DNA from: Clostridia bacterium
GTDB taxonomy: Bacteria > Bacillota > Clostridia > Oscillospirales > CAG-272
Reading direction: 5' to 3'
DNA: 44,984 bases
Assembly (NCBI GenBank): GCA_017452665.1
Contig: JAFTLZ010000104.1
Span: 1 to 44,984, forward strand
The position numbers and the translations under genes are program-made. Under the pieces are notes generated by a model. That model saw nothing but the letters and a program-made list of their open reading frames with translations. It did not search any database and was not told where the DNA came from. Positions 28,536 to 32,387 of this stretch are shown here, piece after piece. Positions within the stretch are counted from its first letter, which is position 1. Each line of letters opens with the position of its first letter.

Positions 28536-29216
28536 TCATTCACCGCGCAGAGCTTGATTCATTGTCTTTGCAAGCTCGTCAGCATAAAAATCGTCCTTGC
28601 GGTGCAGTACCGTTCGTCTGCCGCCGTCATGCGTAATTACAAGGTCGCACAGCCTTGCGGTAATCTCCTGTTTTCCAACGGTAAACACCTGCTCGTCACG
28701 CTCAATCGCAATGCTTTCAATTGAGGAGAAGGGGATTTCCAGCGTCTGTTCGCTTTTTTCGTCTGAAATGAAGGAAAAAACGCGTGCTTTAATGTAAAAT
28801 GCATCGGTTAGTGTCACAATTTTTGCACAAAGATATTCGGACGAAACGGCATTTCCACCCTTTTGCTGCTTGATGAGCAGGTCTTTGCGAAACTGGTATC
28901 CGTCGCAAATTTCTTCACTCACCACGCGCGGCAGACGTTTGCGCAATTTTGAATCTTCCTTCAACTCAGGAAATTGGATCTGATCCAAATTTTTTTTGAT
29001 CACTTCCTTCAGATCACTTTCGCTTGCTCGTCCCGCATTCCCGTAAAAGTAGAGAACAAGTCCGAAGATCAGGATCACACCCCCGATCAAATACATGATA
29101 TAGGAGTACACAAACCCAAGAAAGAGAAATACCACGCCAATGCCGATTGCACCAAACCCGAAGGTCACGGTTTTATCCGAGCGCTTAAAATAATTGAGAA
29201 AGCTTGTATAGTTCAT
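28536..29216 (-). CDS. hypothetical membrane protein (two N-terminal TM helices, beta-rich C-terminus, possibly bacterial PH-like)
   Basis: start MNYTSF after TAAGGAG that overlaps the XRE stop; EIPFSSIESIAIE strand pattern. Confidence 0.7.
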   Translation of the reverse strand: MNYTSFLNYFKRSDKTVTFGFGAIGIGVVFLFLGFVYSYIMYLIGGVILIFGLVLYFYGNAGRASESDLKEVIKKNLDQIQFPELKEDSKLRKRLPRVVSEEICDGYQFRKDLLIKQQKGGNAVSSEYLCAKIVTLTDAFYIKARVFSFISDEKSEQTLEIPFSSIESIAIERDEQVFTVGKQEITARLCDLVITHDGGRRTVLHRKDDFYADELAKTMNQALRGE

Positions 29217-29226
29217 CTGATGCTCC

Positions 29227-29439
29227 TTATAATTGATTTGAAAATAATTCCGCGATCTCCACACCCAGGACAGATGCCACATCATCAAGGATCAGGATAT
29301 CGGGGCAGGAAAGACCTCGTTCCCATTTGGATACTGCCTGTGTCGAAACGCCCACAGCGGCGGCAACCTCCTGTTGCGTGCGTCCCGAGCGATGCCGCAG
29401 CTCGGCAATTCTGCGGCCGAATGTTTCAATGTCCAGCAC
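29227..29439 (-). CDS. XRE/Cro-CI family HTH regulator
   Basis: IAELRHRSGRTQQEVAAAVGVSTQAVSKWERGLSCPDI; AAAAGGAG RBS before GTG. Confidence 0.92.
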   Translation of the reverse strand: MLDIETFGRRIAELRHRSGRTQQEVAAAVGVSTQAVSKWERGLSCPDILILDDVASVLGVEIAELFSNQL

Positions 29440-29467
29440 TTAAAATCTCCTTTTGCTTTTTGGGTAG

Positions 29468-29505
29468 AAAAAAGGGGAACCGTGCGGAATCCGCAGGATT
29501 CCCCT
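29468..29505 (-). terminator. leader (attenuator-type) terminator upstream of the XRE gene
   Basis: minus strand AGGGGAATCCTGCGG-ATT-CCGCACGGTTCCCCT-TTTTT between the promoter and the XRE start. Confidence 0.8.
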
Positions 29506-29557
29506 AAAACTGTGTTCGGAGATTTTTATACTATGCCGTACAGGATGGGTTCCGCCT

Positions 29558-29620
29558 TCAGCGGAAGTGAGTCACCTTTGAGGCATACGAAAAATTTCCG
29601 ATTTTGTTTTGAATGAACAT
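29558..29620 (-). CDS. 20-aa leader peptide or small protein MFIQNKIGNFSYASKVTHFR
   Basis: AAAGGAGG RBS 8 nt before the ATG; below the ORF-track size cutoff. Confidence 0.6.
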   Translation of the reverse strand: MFIQNKIGNFSYASKVTHFR

Positions 29621-29651
29621 TCCATTAGCCTCCTTTCTTTTCATTTATTGA

Positions 29652-29697
29652 TCCGGTTGTACTTCCCGGAGCCGATGGAATCGGTTGTACTTCCCAA
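29652..29697 (-). repeat. twin hairpins with identical 9-nt loops GAAGUACAA
   Basis: 14-nt direct repeat GGGAAGTACAACCG at 29682-29695 and 29654-29667; stems TTGG/CCGA and TCCGG/CCGGA. Confidence 0.75.
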
Positions 29698-29714
29698 ATC
29701 CTTTCGACACAGCC

Positions 29715-29758
29715 AGTATACCATATTTTTTCATAAATGTCAATAAACTGTTAGTTTA
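29715..29758 (-). promoter_or_regulatory. strong sigma-A promoter with adjacent palindromic operator
   Basis: TTGACA-17 nt-TATACT with extended TG; TAAACT-N3-AGTTTA at 29744-29758 abuts the -35. Confidence 0.8.
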
Positions 29759-29855
29759 ATATGTCTCAACTTTTATGGGAGGGAGCTTTTGGTCTTCATA
29801 AATATAGTCTCCAAATATGCAAAAAGGTTCGCTGATTTTTGAAAAAAGAATGTGT

Positions 29856-32387
29856 TTAATTTCCCTTCTCCAATTTGCGGATGCCGGTTTGATTTTGCAA
29901 CAGCATCATCGCGCCGTTATCGTGGCGGCAGAAGGCGTATTCCGTGCCTGCAACAAAGCCGTCACTAAGACCGATCGCTTCGTATTTGCGATTCAAACCT
30001 TCGGCAATGGGGAAGTATCCCTCTCCGATGCCCGCATAGGAGGTTAGGTCGTAGGTCGCACATTGCGTATCCTCTTTGTAGTAGTGCTTTGCACGTACCA
30101 ACCCAACGCCGGGGGCAAACCAGTATTCCATTTTGCCGTTACGGTAGCTTAATCCTCCGCTCAAGCCGCTGACGTTCAAACGGAAGAGCATACAGTTCTC
30201 AAAGCTGCCGGCGGCTGTGGTTACTGTGCCGCCGTCTTCAATGCTGTAATCGTTTGTGGCATTTGCGGCATAGTTGATGCCCACAAGATGCCCGCTTTGT
30301 CCAATGCTCCACGCCTCATCCCACATACAGTGCATTGAATCCTCAAAAATGTCGTAGATGAAGTTGTAGAGCAGGGGATAGCCGCTGTTTTCAATCTTAC
30401 GCTTCCACTCAAACGAGTAGGTACGGTTGTCATACGTGGTGCTTTGATTTCCTTTTGTGCTGATCATGTTGCAAACAAAGAAGTTCCAGTGTCCGGATGC
30501 CGTGCGTGCCGGATTCATTCTTTCATCGGTTTCAAAAATGCGGCGCATCACCTCATTTGCCATGCGGGTGTGCTCCTTTTGGTAGGACGTTGCGGCAAGC
30601 TCCTCGGCGCGCTCCAGCCAATGCGACACATCCTTCAGTTGCGTTTCATTTTTGCGATCCCAATAATTTCCGCGCGCCGTGGTAATCACCTCGTCCCAGT
30701 CATTTTCGTTAATTCCGGTGCGTTGTGCGAGGGACGAGTGATACAAAACCGCCGAAGTTCCGTCAAACGAGGTGACCTCAAATACGTTTTCCATCTCGTA
30801 ATAGGCGGGATCAATACCCTGAGGAAGCGCGTATTCCCAGCGGTTTCCGACGGCAAAGGGAATCAAACCGGTTCCGCCGTTGATCTGATACCGCTTCAGC
30901 GTGGTGACGATTGTTCCTACCGGGAGTATCTTTTCCTGCCGTACGATTCCGATGTTGCGCTTGTACCAGGTTGTAATGATTTTCCCGGTCTTACCCTGAT
31001 ATTTCCACGCCTCACAGCCCCAAAAGGTTCCGGCGGCGGTTTGCACGGTCTCGTTGTTGGCAACAAAGGTGAGGGTGCTTTCTCCGTCTGAACTTTGGTA
31101 GCACTCTCCCGGCTTCATTTCGGAGTCGTAGAACGTGCGGTCGCACCGTGAGGCGTAGAAAAAGATAGATTCCCCCTGGTCAATTTCGGTTTTCATATGA
31201 CCGCCGCGGCTGTAGCCGGGTTGCTGCCAAAAGCGCAGCTTGCCGTCCAATAGGCGGTATTCCTCGCCGGTAGCACTGACACGAATCTTTTCATGCTCGG
31301 CAGATGCATAAGCTTTTTCTGCGCGGATGGCGGCAACGGCGTTGGCGTAGTAGATATCTGCAGGGGTCAGTAGAGAGAGAACCGTTTCAAAAGCCTCCAA
31401 CGCCTCGGTGCTTTGATGGGAATCGGAGTAGTTCAGACCCAGCCAGAACCAAACGTAAGCCGCTACTTTTTTGTAGCCTGCCTCCTCCAGGCGCGGGATC
31501 TGCTTGTTGCGCATAAAGTCGATTTGTTCCGTACCTTGAAATTTTTGGTACTCGTATGCCGCAATCATAGTCAGCACGTTTTCATTTTTGCCTTTTTCGG
31601 CAGCTTCACGGATTTTCTCTCGCATTTCGTCGCTTTTCTCACCCTCGCACCACCAAAATCCACATTGCAGTACATCGGCAAGCGCGCTGTATTTCTCCTG
31701 CGATTCGGGAAGTTGGTCGATGTCGGCAAGCACCTCGCGATACAGCACCTCAAATCCCGCTTTGTTATCCAAAAGCCTCCATTTTTTGATTTCTTCCACT
31801 TTTTTCATCACACGTTCGGTAAATGTTTCGTTGTTACTCATGGTATCCTCCATCTCCTTTCTAAGTTTGTCTCTTCCTTCATAAAGGCGATATTTTACGG
31901 TTCCCACGGGAATCGAAAGCCGATCCGAGATCTCCGCCAACGAAAGTCCTTCCACGTAGTGCATCAAAATCACCTTACGCACCTTTTCGGAAAGCTTGTG
32001 AATGCCGTTATGAAGCCGTTCATTCTTTTCGGAAAGCAAGGGAAAGGGAGGGAACTGCTCCTGCGCGAGGAGCTTTGTGTTTTGCAGATCCTCATAGTTG
32101 AGCATATCCCGAAACTGGCGAATGGTATTTTTTGCGCGGTTGCGGGCGATGCGGCAGATCCAAACGCCGAATTTGTCCGCCTCGCGCAAAGAATTCAGTT
32201 TGATCCAAGCCGAAACGAATGCATCCTGTGCCGCATCCTCGGCGAGATAGTGATCCCGCGTAACGGTGTAAGCCGAGGCGATTACAGCGCGTTGATAGCG
32301 CAGTACCAATTCTTCATAAGCTTTTTCCTTGCCAAGAAGAGTCATCATCACCAAGGTGTTATCATCGTGTTCCGAGTAATTCTCCAT
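29856..32387 (-). CDS. ECF sigma-70 factor with ~660-aa C-terminal extension (TPR-like helices plus two repeated beta domains)
   Basis: sigma2 (AEDAAQDAFVSAW, FGVWICRIARN), sigma4 (YVEGLSLAEIS, GTVKYRLYEGRDKLR); TPR-like WFWLGLNY...EALEAFETVL; duplicated TVxTAAGxF..C. Confidence 0.88.
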   Translation of the reverse strand: MENYSEHDDNTLVMMTLLGKEKAYEELVLRYQRAVIASAYTVTRDHYLAEDAAQDAFVSAWIKLNSLREADKFGVWICRIARNRAKNTIRQFRDMLNYEDLQNTKLLAQEQFPPFPLLSEKNERLHNGIHKLSEKVRKVILMHYVEGLSLAEISDRLSIPVGTVKYRLYEGRDKLRKEMEDTMSNNETFTERVMKKVEEIKKWRLLDNKAGFEVLYREVLADIDQLPESQEKYSALADVLQCGFWWCEGEKSDEMREKIREAAEKGKNENVLTMIAAYEYQKFQGTEQIDFMRNKQIPRLEEAGYKKVAAYVWFWLGLNYSDSHQSTEALEAFETVLSLLTPADIYYANAVAAIRAEKAYASAEHEKIRVSATGEEYRLLDGKLRFWQQPGYSRGGHMKTEIDQGESIFFYASRCDRTFYDSEMKPGECYQSSDGESTLTFVANNETVQTAAGTFWGCEAWKYQGKTGKIITTWYKRNIGIVRQEKILPVGTIVTTLKRYQINGGTGLIPFAVGNRWEYALPQGIDPAYYEMENVFEVTSFDGTSAVLYHSSLAQRTGINENDWDEVITTARGNYWDRKNETQLKDVSHWLERAEELAATSYQKEHTRMANEVMRRIFETDERMNPARTASGHWNFFVCNMISTKGNQSTTYDNRTYSFEWKRKIENSGYPLLYNFIYDIFEDSMHCMWDEAWSIGQSGHLVGINYAANATNDYSIEDGGTVTTAAGSFENCMLFRLNVSGLSGGLSYRNGKMEYWFAPGVGLVRAKHYYKEDTQCATYDLTSYAGIGEGYFPIAEGLNRKYEAIGLSDGFVAGTEYAFCRHDNGAMMLLQNQTGIRKLEKGN

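Follow-up and report, generated by a model that had tools for sequence, protein, structure and literature searches.

A conserved leader RNA with a short upstream open reading frame looks like a translation-sensing switch ahead of a small XRE regulator gene in many gut Oscillospiraceae

Leaders that contain a short upstream open reading frame (uORF) are well known before amino-acid and antibiotic-resistance genes. The trp- and his-type leaders and the antibiotic-responsive leaders seen by Term-seq are attenuators of the leader-peptide kind. In the translational attenuation of erm and cat genes, the leader sequesters the ribosome-binding site of the target, and stalling of a ribosome in the leader ORF sets this site free. 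Salmonella mgtA/mgtL, SecM-secA and MifM-yidC2 each sense a particular signal, such as proline or secretion force, by means of specific codons or arrest sequences. ANTAR targets have a different layout, with two adjacent hairpins that carry six-base loops, the second overlapping a terminator. To our knowledge, uORF leaders ahead of transcription factors have very rarely been described, and uncultured gut Clostridia have supplied few uORF leaders. A further leader-peptide attenuator is the bmrB leader of Bacillus subtilis bmrCD, described as a ribosome-mediated transcription attenuator (PMC4191407).

We analysed a leader in a 44,984-nt stretch of a Clostridia bacterium genome (contig JAFTLZ010000104.1), referred to below as the window. 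The leader elements all lie on the minus strand, from 29758 to 29440, ahead of a 70-aa XRE gene. As in bmrB-type attenuators, there is a short ORF in the 5' leader, alternative stem-loops overlap this ORF, and an intrinsic terminator precedes the regulated gene (in the window and 19 of 35 homologues), which lacks its own promoter. The XRE leader differs in having neither regulatory codon runs nor a conserved peptide. Its target gene encodes a transcription factor and no biosynthetic or resistance function, and its candidate antiterminator is the ORF strand itself, not a segment after the ORF. Almost half of its homologues have no U-tail, a long hairpin has the stop codon at its tip, and there is an extra 5' hairpin with a conserved loop. 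As with erm and cat, ribosome occupancy of the leader ORF would re-pair downstream segments, one of which is complementary to the downstream ribosome-binding site. However, the predicted polarity is opposite, as occupancy of the uORF would here free the masking strand and not the masked site. The XRE leader also has no drug-dependent arrest motif, and a stable hairpin lies between the masking strand and the masked site. As in mgtA/mgtL, SecM-secA and MifM-yidC2, translation of an upstream short ORF would choose between stem-loops that control the downstream gene, but no signal-sensing codons or arrest sequence are conserved in the XRE leader. Two other resemblances were rejected. An ANTAR-type dual hairpin does not fit loops of nine bases, a hairpin pair seen in the window only and a terminator about 150 nt further on, and an RRNPP-type cassette, which pairs a secreted propeptide with a receptor whose HTH is fused to a peptide-binding repeat domain, does not fit an XRE protein that is a 70-aa HTH only, with a uORF that has no signal-like segment.

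The original prediction had read in the window a near-consensus promoter, two hairpins with the same loop, a strong uORF ribosome-binding site, a 20-aa uORF folded into nested stems, and a strong terminator, and each of these was recovered. The promoter (29715-29743) is of the sigma-A type with an extended -10 element. Its -35 hexamer (29743-29738) and -10 hexamer (29720-29715) match the consensus at 11 of 12 positions, with a TG before the -10 and a 17-nt spacer whose length is the same in homologues. Two 5' hairpins follow, P1a (29671-29708) and P1b (29652-29670), with loops (29693-29685 and 29665-29657) of nine identical bases; P1b is the counterpart of the single P1 hairpin of the homologues, and P1a is an extra copy. 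The uORF ribosome-binding site (SD1, 29629-29636) precedes 20 codons and a TGA stop (29558-29620), and the encoded peptide is exactly the one predicted. A second ATG, 5 bases upstream of the start and just 3 nt from the ribosome-binding core, was rejected as the uORF start, since the homologues do not use it. The long hairpin (29516-29601) pairs uORF codons 7-16 with downstream RNA, codons 7-13 pairing with 29537-29516. At its apex, folding and the homologue parses place a small hairpin (29550-29566) with the stop codon at the loop. Read by eye, two of the three stop-codon bases are in this loop in the window, which was left out of the automatic parse. The terminator (29468-29505) consists of a 33-nt stem-loop (29505-29473, -22.3 kcal/mol) and six U. 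The folds show it, while a simple terminator scan omits it because its rules demand a loop of 3-8 nt. The XRE ribosome-binding site (SD2, 29445-29450) is complementary to the stretch 29527-29519; this lies within the long hairpin's 3' arm, which includes a six-base complement of the site. In the minimum free energy (MFE) fold of the whole leader, nine bases are paired around SD2 and 29527-29519. The MFE of the 248-nt leader was -77.9 kcal/mol, compared with -61.2 +/- 4.9 kcal/mol for shuffled sequences (z = -3.42; 2 of 200 shuffles as stable).

Homologues of this leader were collected as 35 distinct leaders and four divergent ones read by eye, giving 39 variants; the sequences compared are related, most come from one genus, and every fold is a prediction. 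Of the 78 species genomes of the window's genus, 26 carried the leader, and it also occurred in gut metagenomes and in one further genus of the family. A pattern search of the genus matched 22 of the 78 genomes, against no control matches. With a pattern of loop plus ribosome-binding site, 22 of 29 genome matches were leaders, the other seven lying in unrelated phyla with no uORF; with a loop-independent pattern, all 14 metagenome matches were leaders. The sampled family genomes outside the genus gave one true homologue and one chance match. Among 14 loci fetched by the exact loop word, nine carried the leader and five were chance matches, and the twelve-base loop word with one mismatch allowed was no commoner in the genus than its reversed control. 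The blastn matches listed for the leader in 201 family genomes were at most about 46 nt long, most of them over the promoter hexamers, and none spanned the leader; we therefore took these as chance matches. Within the genus, 26 of 27 XRE orthologues had such a leader, and in alignment A1 an XRE orthologue lay downstream in 20 of 22 cases. The remaining orthologue in the genus had no uORF leader at all, which makes the leader dispensable. Comparison with Rfam release 15 (4227 families) gave no significant match on the leader in the window or in nine homologous loci. In the window, its three matches at E values up to 10 all had E > 2 and lay on the opposite strand. In the nine loci, the sole matches above the gathering score were cobalamin riboswitches in neighbouring intergenic regions. 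Full-text searches of the literature turned up no account of this leader, which thus looks like a translation-sensing RNA switch that is new to the literature searched.

The uORF is a constant part of the leader. An ORF of 18-20 codons was found in 35 of 35 distinct leaders (20 codons in 25, 19 in nine and 18 in one). Across leaders, 6-9 nt separate the ribosome-binding core from the start codon, and SD1 and the start codon are invariant in A1. The invariant bases within the uORF are nevertheless read in two frames, following a 1-nt insertion, with ORF length and stop position retained. That the same bases are kept in two frames within an ORF of conserved length implies that translation matters and the peptide does not. 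We infer that the uORF is actually translated, and from the aligned sequences its peptide appears to have no role of its own. Neither regulatory codon runs nor a conserved arrest peptide was found among the homologues, whose peptides vary, and thus no specific signal can be named.

The conservation of the uORF and its stems that the original prediction implied was seen in the homologues, together with covariation. Four conserved parts are backed by covariation, namely the 5' hairpin, the long hairpin, the apical hairpin at the stop codon and the last hairpin. When P1, the last hairpin and the pairing of SD1 with an anti-SD1 stretch were counted together on A1, 95.6% of cells were paired. Shuffles reached 82.1 +/- 1.0% (0 of 500 as high) and slid registers 43-52%. 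Thirteen of the pairs had changed on both sides: five of the eight P1 pairs, which enclose an invariant loop, seven of the ten in the last hairpin, and one of the seven in the SD1:anti-SD1 helix. The anti-SD1 is a five-to-seven-base stretch inside the uORF (29584-29580), pairing with which would give an SD1-sequestered state. RNAalifold predicted this helix on the homologues, and it is lengthened to 8 bp in the distant homologue L157. Five of its seven pairs never vary, and with so little variation, covariation speaks neither for nor against this helix.

The long hairpin was analysed sequence by sequence and not on one alignment. When folding of each leader began at the uORF and stopped short of the last hairpin, the long hairpin was recovered in 34 of 34, and its arms vary by lineage yet stay complementary. 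Between 9 and 19 pairs joined the uORF to downstream RNA in all 30 parsed leaders. The stop codon lay wholly in the apical loop in 25 of the 30 parsed homologues, partly in three and outside in two, with the reservation that some automatic parses behind this count, and behind the SD2 and accessibility counts below, mispicked hairpins or starts (for example in the window, L075, L080, L099, L103 and L123). In many leaders, the fold with SD1 forced into pairing was within a few kcal/mol of that with SD1 free, and the MFE predictions switch between two folds across homologues. The models support three mutually exclusive partners for the uORF strand, predicted to be SD1, the long hairpin's downstream arm and the last hairpin's 5' arm.

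The third of these partners bears on transcription termination. A U-rich tail followed the last hairpin in 19 of 35 leaders and was missing from 16, which means that not every leader can work through termination. When 20 leaders were scanned for the best upstream partner of the last-hairpin 5' arm, this partner overlapped the uORF in 19. A perfect complement of at least 6 nt to this arm was found in 13 of the 19 U-tailed leaders versus none of the 16 others. The sole formal test of the pairing, the count on A1, gave no excess over shuffles (76.6% against a shuffle mean of 76.6; 280 of 500 reached it), exceeding the slid registers only (33-52%). The window is exceptional here, since the longest perfect complement between its uORF and its terminator 5' arm is 3 nt. 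The best partner of that arm is a broken duplex around the stop codon (-12.9 kcal/mol). The original prediction had proposed another exclusive fold, between the segment after the stop codon and the terminator 3' arm. The window does have this complementarity, but the homologues showed nothing equivalent, and we rejected this pairing as kinetically implausible because the adjacent 5' arm competes.

Only 33 nt separate the terminator from the XRE start in the window, and about 20-60 nt lie between the last hairpin and XRE across leaders. A separate XRE promoter, which would have spoken against attenuation, did not appear, as the scan lists no promoter-like site in the 33-nt gap; the XRE gene must therefore be read through from the leader promoter. 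The attenuator read by a ribosome, as originally proposed, is thus backed in its layout by the comparative data. However, classical attenuation cannot be the whole story, given the 16 of 35 leaders that lack a U-tail and the single XRE orthologue without any leader.

The XRE ribosome-binding site offers a second point of control. Complementarity between the 3' arm region of the long hairpin and this site exceeded 95% of shuffles in 20 of 33 leaders. When the uORF was blocked in the model, the unpaired probability of SD2 decreased from a mean of 0.42 to 0.32, going down in 16 leaders, up in one and remaining unchanged in 14 (n = 31). Blocking left it flat in the window (0.21 vs 0.20). As modelled occupancy of the uORF lowers SD2 accessibility, XRE synthesis would fall when uORF translation is busy.

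The XRE gene (29227-29439, minus strand) starts with GTG at 29439 and encodes 70 aa matching Pfam HTH_3 (E = 3.3e-15), a Cro/C1-type HTH only. A candidate operator, a 15-bp perfect palindrome (6-3-6) at 29744-29758, abuts the -35 hexamer and has a single exact occurrence in the genome from which the window comes. All 31 leaders with 5' sequence (31 of 31) have a related block next to the -35 that is partly symmetric. From this arrangement, XRE probably autoregulates the leader promoter by binding the palindrome. In the window, the same operon includes a gene for a 226-aa protein of no known family (28536-29216, minus strand). Its translation shows hydrophobic stretches near the N-terminus and gave no Pfam or NCBIfam family above the cut-off. 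This gene is downstream of XRE in only some homologues, and thus lies outside the conserved core. It was found in 108 of 401 family genomes, but of the 30 loci fetched, only one (L032) carried the leader and the XRE gene ahead of it. In L032, a block similar to the palindrome lies upstream of the 226-aa gene, which is transcribed separately.

We hold with moderate confidence that this RNA is a cis-acting 5' leader of the XRE mRNA, with its state set by ribosomes translating the 20-codon uORF. The transcript would begin a few bases before the 5' hairpin, which is duplicated in this genome, and the strong SD1 would put ribosomes on the uORF. The second half of the uORF would serve as one strand of three rival helices: with its own ribosome-binding site; with the downstream segment, forming the long hairpin with the stop codon at the tip; and, for many species, with the last hairpin's 5' arm, this hairpin being an intrinsic terminator in roughly half of those species. 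A ribosome that reaches the stop codon would strip the entire 5' strand of the long hairpin and nothing further. This would free the 3' strand and remove the uORF strand from the other helices, so that formation of the terminator or clamp hairpin, and likewise masking of SD2, would be decided by uORF translation. We infer that the switch acts on XRE with the polarity given above, and that its signal may be general translation capacity or ribosome-targeting stress.

Other readings give the ribosome a lesser part or none. The original prediction had also invoked an RNA-binding factor and a dual binding site formed by the two hairpins. A protein or RNA recognising the 5' loop would then set the fold, and the uORF would be an expression platform or incidental; a processive antiterminator, a translational repressor or loop-loop pairing between transcripts could be responsible. 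The nine-base loop is identical in 30 of 34 leaders on a freely covarying stem, and stays unchanged even where the closing pairs differ. The hairpin is at the extreme 5' end, upstream of the terminators, and its duplication in the window would also suit a binding site. Nonetheless, unrelated loops, one of them a tetraloop, take its place in L157, G420 and G453 with the rest of the leader kept, the conserved neighbourhood contains no candidate RNA-binding protein gene, and there is no Rfam match. Several replacement loops retain a self-complementary core of 4-6 nt, but with about five independent loop types this tendency is not significant by a rough binomial estimate. We regard factor or ligand binding as unlikely. 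The loop replacements weaken the case for a factor, and the dual site is not supported, since the duplication was seen in the window only: a single 5' hairpin is present in the 33 other leaders with 5' sequence and the four read by eye, the closest relative included. Binding of the GGA-motif or CsrA-like type was dropped, since the motif is partly within stems and the evidence is no more than a resemblance. The inverted repeats could alternatively be DNA operators for an XRE dimer, the leader then amounting to no more than a long untranslated region. Proteins of the XRE type bind palindromes, a block of this kind abuts the -35, and it has a five-base word in common with the hairpin DNA. Yet the similarity is merely half-site-like, and the hairpin arms covary around a conserved asymmetric centre, the opposite of what a dimer operator would show. 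On this pattern we rejected the 5' hairpins as XRE operators; the long, apical and last hairpins also covary as RNA helices, leaving the operator reading very improbable.

The leader could instead be an independent transcript of about 240 nt ending at the terminator, either a small-protein mRNA or a dual-function small RNA, with XRE expressed by incidental read-through. This would account for the strong promoter and the strong U-tailed terminator of the window, the two tandem terminators of the metagenome homologue L122, and the conserved ribosome-binding site and ORF, and other mRNAs would in principle be possible pairing partners of the freed 3' arm. We doubt it, however, because the 16 leaders with no U-tail must run into XRE, the last hairpin lies so close to that gene, and the leader adjoins the orthologue in all but one of the 27 genus cases. 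The uORF product argues the same way, being variable around invariant bases that are read in two frames and having no long hydrophobic stretch or signal-like segment. The same properties tell against a type I toxin-antitoxin-like locus, in which RNA structure would restrain a toxic peptide; type I toxin mRNAs encode a hydrophobic membrane peptide and have a cognate antisense RNA. Such an arrangement was suggested by the short ORF within a long hairpin and a short terminated transcript, and the original prediction had offered it along with a stand-alone peptide. However, the window peptide is polar, with 20 aa and no hydrophobic run of transmembrane length, and its sequence is not conserved. 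The promoter and element scan of the window showed no antisense promoter or antisense RNA gene, and the locus is single-copy and chromosomal with conserved synteny. A toxin locus is therefore the least credible reading, with hardly any probability.

The leader set by uORF translation thus remains our preferred reading. A bolder form of it, offered as speculation that we think improbable in its entirety, is a peptide-independent "translation gauge". Here the ribosome itself would be the ligand, and a stop codon at the hairpin tip would toggle a three-way switch that sets termination and SD2 masking, so that the autoregulated XRE would report global translation capacity. The 5' loop, in which a self-complementary core is frequent, may be a second input, through loop-loop pairing between transcripts or a dedicated binding factor.

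The 39 variants provide a clean comparative case in which RNA helices covary and a reading frame is preserved while the peptide is irrelevant, and the leader is a ready candidate for a new Rfam family. Its geometry is unusual: a long hairpin bears the stop codon at its apex, and the ORF strand has three rival partners. If the model is true, a small XRE regulator, together with an uncharacterised membrane protein under its control in many species, would be wired to the translation status of these bacteria.

All elements listed in the original prediction ahead of the XRE gene were confirmed on the minus strand, and the predicted fold of the window leader was more stable than that of shuffled sequences (z = -3.42), with only 2 of 200 shuffles equally stable. 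The promoter (-35 at 29743-29738, -10 at 29720-29715, 17-nt spacer) matches 11 of 12 consensus positions and carries an upstream TG. A perfect 15-bp palindrome (29758-29744, arranged 6-3-6 and centred near -43) directly abuts the -35. Two adjoining 5' hairpins (29708-29671 and 29670-29652) have identical nine-base loops, and an A-rich linker connects the second to a strong ribosome-binding site (29636-29629). The uORF that follows (29620-29558) has 20 codons and encodes the peptide quoted in the original prediction. Its interior (29601-29580) is predicted to pair with downstream RNA (29537-29516) in a long hairpin, at whose tip a small apical hairpin (29566-29550) carries the stop codon. A 33-nt terminator stem (29505-29473) and six U precede the XRE gene (29439-29227, 70 aa; Pfam HTH_3, E = 3.3e-15), whose GTG start lies 33 nt past the terminator. 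The next gene (29216-28536) encodes a 226-aa protein that belongs to no known family and has hydrophobic stretches at its N-terminus. The leader is single-copy in the window's own genome. The ORF listing also gave an in-frame ATG at 29644, 24 nt upstream of the uORF start, which would make a frame of 28 codons; it lacks a ribosome-binding site, and homologues do not conserve it. The gene upstream of the leader (29856-32387, minus strand) encodes an 843-aa fusion: an ECF-type sigma factor (regions 2 and 4) makes up the N-terminal part, and the long C-terminal part contains a DUF3108-like domain.

Searching 201 genomes of the family with the leader by blastn gave short matches only, mostly over the promoter. 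The first homologue (L032), in a genome of the same genus, was reached through the neighbouring 226-aa gene. Its XRE protein is 66% identical and its leader clearly related, with a single 5' hairpin and no U-tail. A first pattern (loop word, gap and ribosome-binding site), run on a species-level genome collection, found 29 stretches. Leaders accounted for 22, from Oscillospiraceae, Clostridia or Eubacteriales gut MAGs, one being cut by a contig end; the other seven, from unrelated phyla and without the ORF, were taken as chance. A second pattern, built without the loop, required the ribosome-binding core and start codon plus two words that are invariant within the ORF. All 14 of its matches in metagenomes were true leaders, and in the window's genus it matched 22 of 78 species genomes, against none for a reversed control. 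In a 401-genome family sample it matched four genomes, two of them in the window's genus (its own included); the third match is a genuine, divergent homologue from another genus (L157) and the fourth a chance match at the start of an ordinary gene. XRE orthologues (E of 1.2e-18 or better) were present in 27 of the 78 genus genomes. Pattern-defined leaders preceded 22 of them and divergent leaders, read directly, four; the last (L163, genome G440; 59% identity) has the same promoter block and a short untranslated region without a uORF, implying that the leader can be lost.

The collection comprised 35 distinct leaders plus the four divergent ones; the sequences come mostly from one genus, and these counts are not independent. 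The uORF and stems, whose conservation the original prediction had made decisive, are conserved among the homologues. No Rfam 15 family matched the leader in cmscan at a permissive E-value, and none did so in nine homologous loci. The two significant matches among those nine loci were cobalamin riboswitches above the gathering threshold (L135, 1092-1277; L140, 1810-2022) in neighbouring intergenic regions upstream of the leader. Full-text literature searching found no account of the leader. The element is real, conserved and absent from Rfam.

Conservation of the predicted pairing was assessed on an alignment of 22 leaders. The 5' hairpin stem has eight pairs, five with compensatory changes, and the last hairpin, which is the terminator hairpin of the window, has ten, seven of them compensated. 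Together with a helix in which the uORF ribosome-binding site pairs with a complementary word of the ORF, they were 95.6% paired, compared with 82.1 +/- 1.0 for shuffles (none of 500 reached the observed value) and 43-52% for slid registers. The long hairpin was assessed leader by leader, each being folded over the segment that starts with the ORF and stops short of the last hairpin. It was predicted in 34 of 34 leaders, with arms that are lineage-specific yet complementary. The ORF was predicted to form 9-19 pairs with downstream RNA in all 30 parsed leaders, and the stop codon to lie wholly within the apical loop in 25, partly in three and not at all in two. The apical stems covary between leaders. 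One metagenome contig (L122) has an extra stem inserted in the long hairpin and two tandem U-tailed terminators before XRE.

The ribosome-binding site and start codon of the uORF were invariant in the alignment. Among the 35 distinct leaders the frame has 20 codons in 25, 19 in nine and 18 in one (the window's start being set by the second-pattern anchor), ending in TAA in 30, TGA in four and TAG in one. Both words inside the ORF are invariant in nucleotides, third codon positions included. Five leaders carry a 1-nt insertion that puts the second word in another frame, encoding different amino acids, and their ORFs remain open and end at about the same place. Amino acids also vary freely at the covarying positions of the long hairpin. 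Judged from these patterns, selection maintains the RNA and a reading frame of that extent, rather than the peptide. This speaks against the uORF encoding a functional small protein, toxin, signalling peptide or sequence-specific arrest peptide. The type I toxin-like transcript offered as an alternative in the original prediction thus becomes extremely improbable. An independent small RNA or peptide transcript is unlikely, a functional small protein being disfavoured on the same grounds. In the window's closest relative (L160, genome G447), the optimal spacing from the uORF ribosome-binding site is taken by a start codon with a stop codon directly after it; the 20-codon uORF begins a few bases further on, possibly a start-stop or re-initiation arrangement.

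A factor might also read the leader, chiefly through its 5' hairpin. Of 34 leaders, 30 have the identical nine-base loop, which is retained where the closing pairs differ and has one base changed in the closest relative; other loops replace it in L127/L129, L128, L157, G420 and G453. We regard this reading as unlikely. The loop variants of the window, L128, L127 and L164 share a self-complementary core of 4-6 bases, which is suggestive of loop-loop pairing; the independent types are few, and two other variants lack the core. The closest relative has the same upstream ECF-sigma fusion gene and one 5' hairpin, so the simplest account of the window's twin is a recent duplication. It is very unlikely that the inverted repeats of the hairpins are DNA operators. 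For the palindrome itself, promoter spacing is constant among homologues, and all 31 leaders with enough 5' sequence have a partly palindromic block directly next to the -35. The window's palindrome has one exact occurrence in its own genome, and a block related to it stands upstream of the separately transcribed 226-aa gene in L032 (about 1424-1445). The palindrome is probably an operator for XRE autoregulation.

We consider it reasonably probable that the leader acts in cis, uORF translation selecting among alternative RNA folds and so controlling XRE expression. RNAalifold paired the uORF ribosome-binding site with the complementary word inside the ORF. This helix is nearly invariant (five of seven pairs never vary, one compensatory change) and has 8 bp in the distant homologue L157. 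It is predicted to be mutually exclusive with the inner part of the long hairpin; whole-leader minimum free energy structures flip between the two states among homologues, and the forced-state energies lie within a few kcal/mol of each other in many leaders. In 19 of 20 leaders scanned, the upstream stretch that makes the best duplex with the 5' arm of the last hairpin lies inside the ORF. Perfect complementarity of 6 nt or more between that arm and ORF codons 6-10 was present in 13 of 19 U-tailed leaders and in none of the 16 that lack the tail; no more than 0.7% of shuffles reach any one case, and lineages show matching two-sided changes. On the alignment, however, this pairing exceeded slid registers only (33-52%) and not column shuffles (76.6% vs 76.6%; 280 of 500 reached it). 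The window is exceptional: its longest perfect complement has 3 nt, and the best pairing available is a broken duplex around the stop codon. The helix is therefore only a candidate antiterminator.

Of the 35 leaders, 19 have a U-rich tail after the last hairpin; the other 16 have an A-rich run before the hairpin and none after it, indicating two output designs, with and without an intrinsic terminator. Complementarity to the XRE ribosome-binding site is present in the long hairpin's 3' arm and the linker that follows, exceeding 95% of shuffles in 20 of 33 leaders (some with parsing errors). In the window's minimum free energy structure, a nine-base stretch around 29527-29519 is paired to another around 29450-29442, enclosing the terminator. 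With the ORF barred from pairing, the mean unpaired probability of the XRE site in partition functions fell from 0.42 to 0.32; accessibility went down in 16, up in one and was unchanged in 14 of 31 leaders, the window among the last (0.21 vs 0.20). In leaders without a U-tail (e.g. L068, L087, L100, L104), the last-hairpin loop often has a pyrimidine-rich word, complementary to a ribosome-binding site and about 10 nt upstream of the XRE site, which could form a pseudoknot masking that site.

Selection among alternative folds by uORF translation is the best-supported reading; as for the attenuator originally proposed, the U-tail is confined to 19 of 35 leaders and the antiterminator stays a candidate. 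By this reading, uORF translation would control termination in some species and, in most, the XRE ribosome-binding site. The uORF stops right at the apex of the long hairpin, a geometry that points to the ribosome as effector: it would unzip the whole 5' strand and leave the 3' strand untouched, freeing it to act in turn. XRE probably also autoregulates at the palindrome. The leader would be a variation on the leader-ORF attenuator theme, with several unusual features. Busy uORF translation would mean less XRE translation, a polarity taken from the model. Since neither codon bias nor an arrest motif was found in the uORF among the leaders compared, the natural guess is that the signal is general translation capacity or ribosome-targeting stress.
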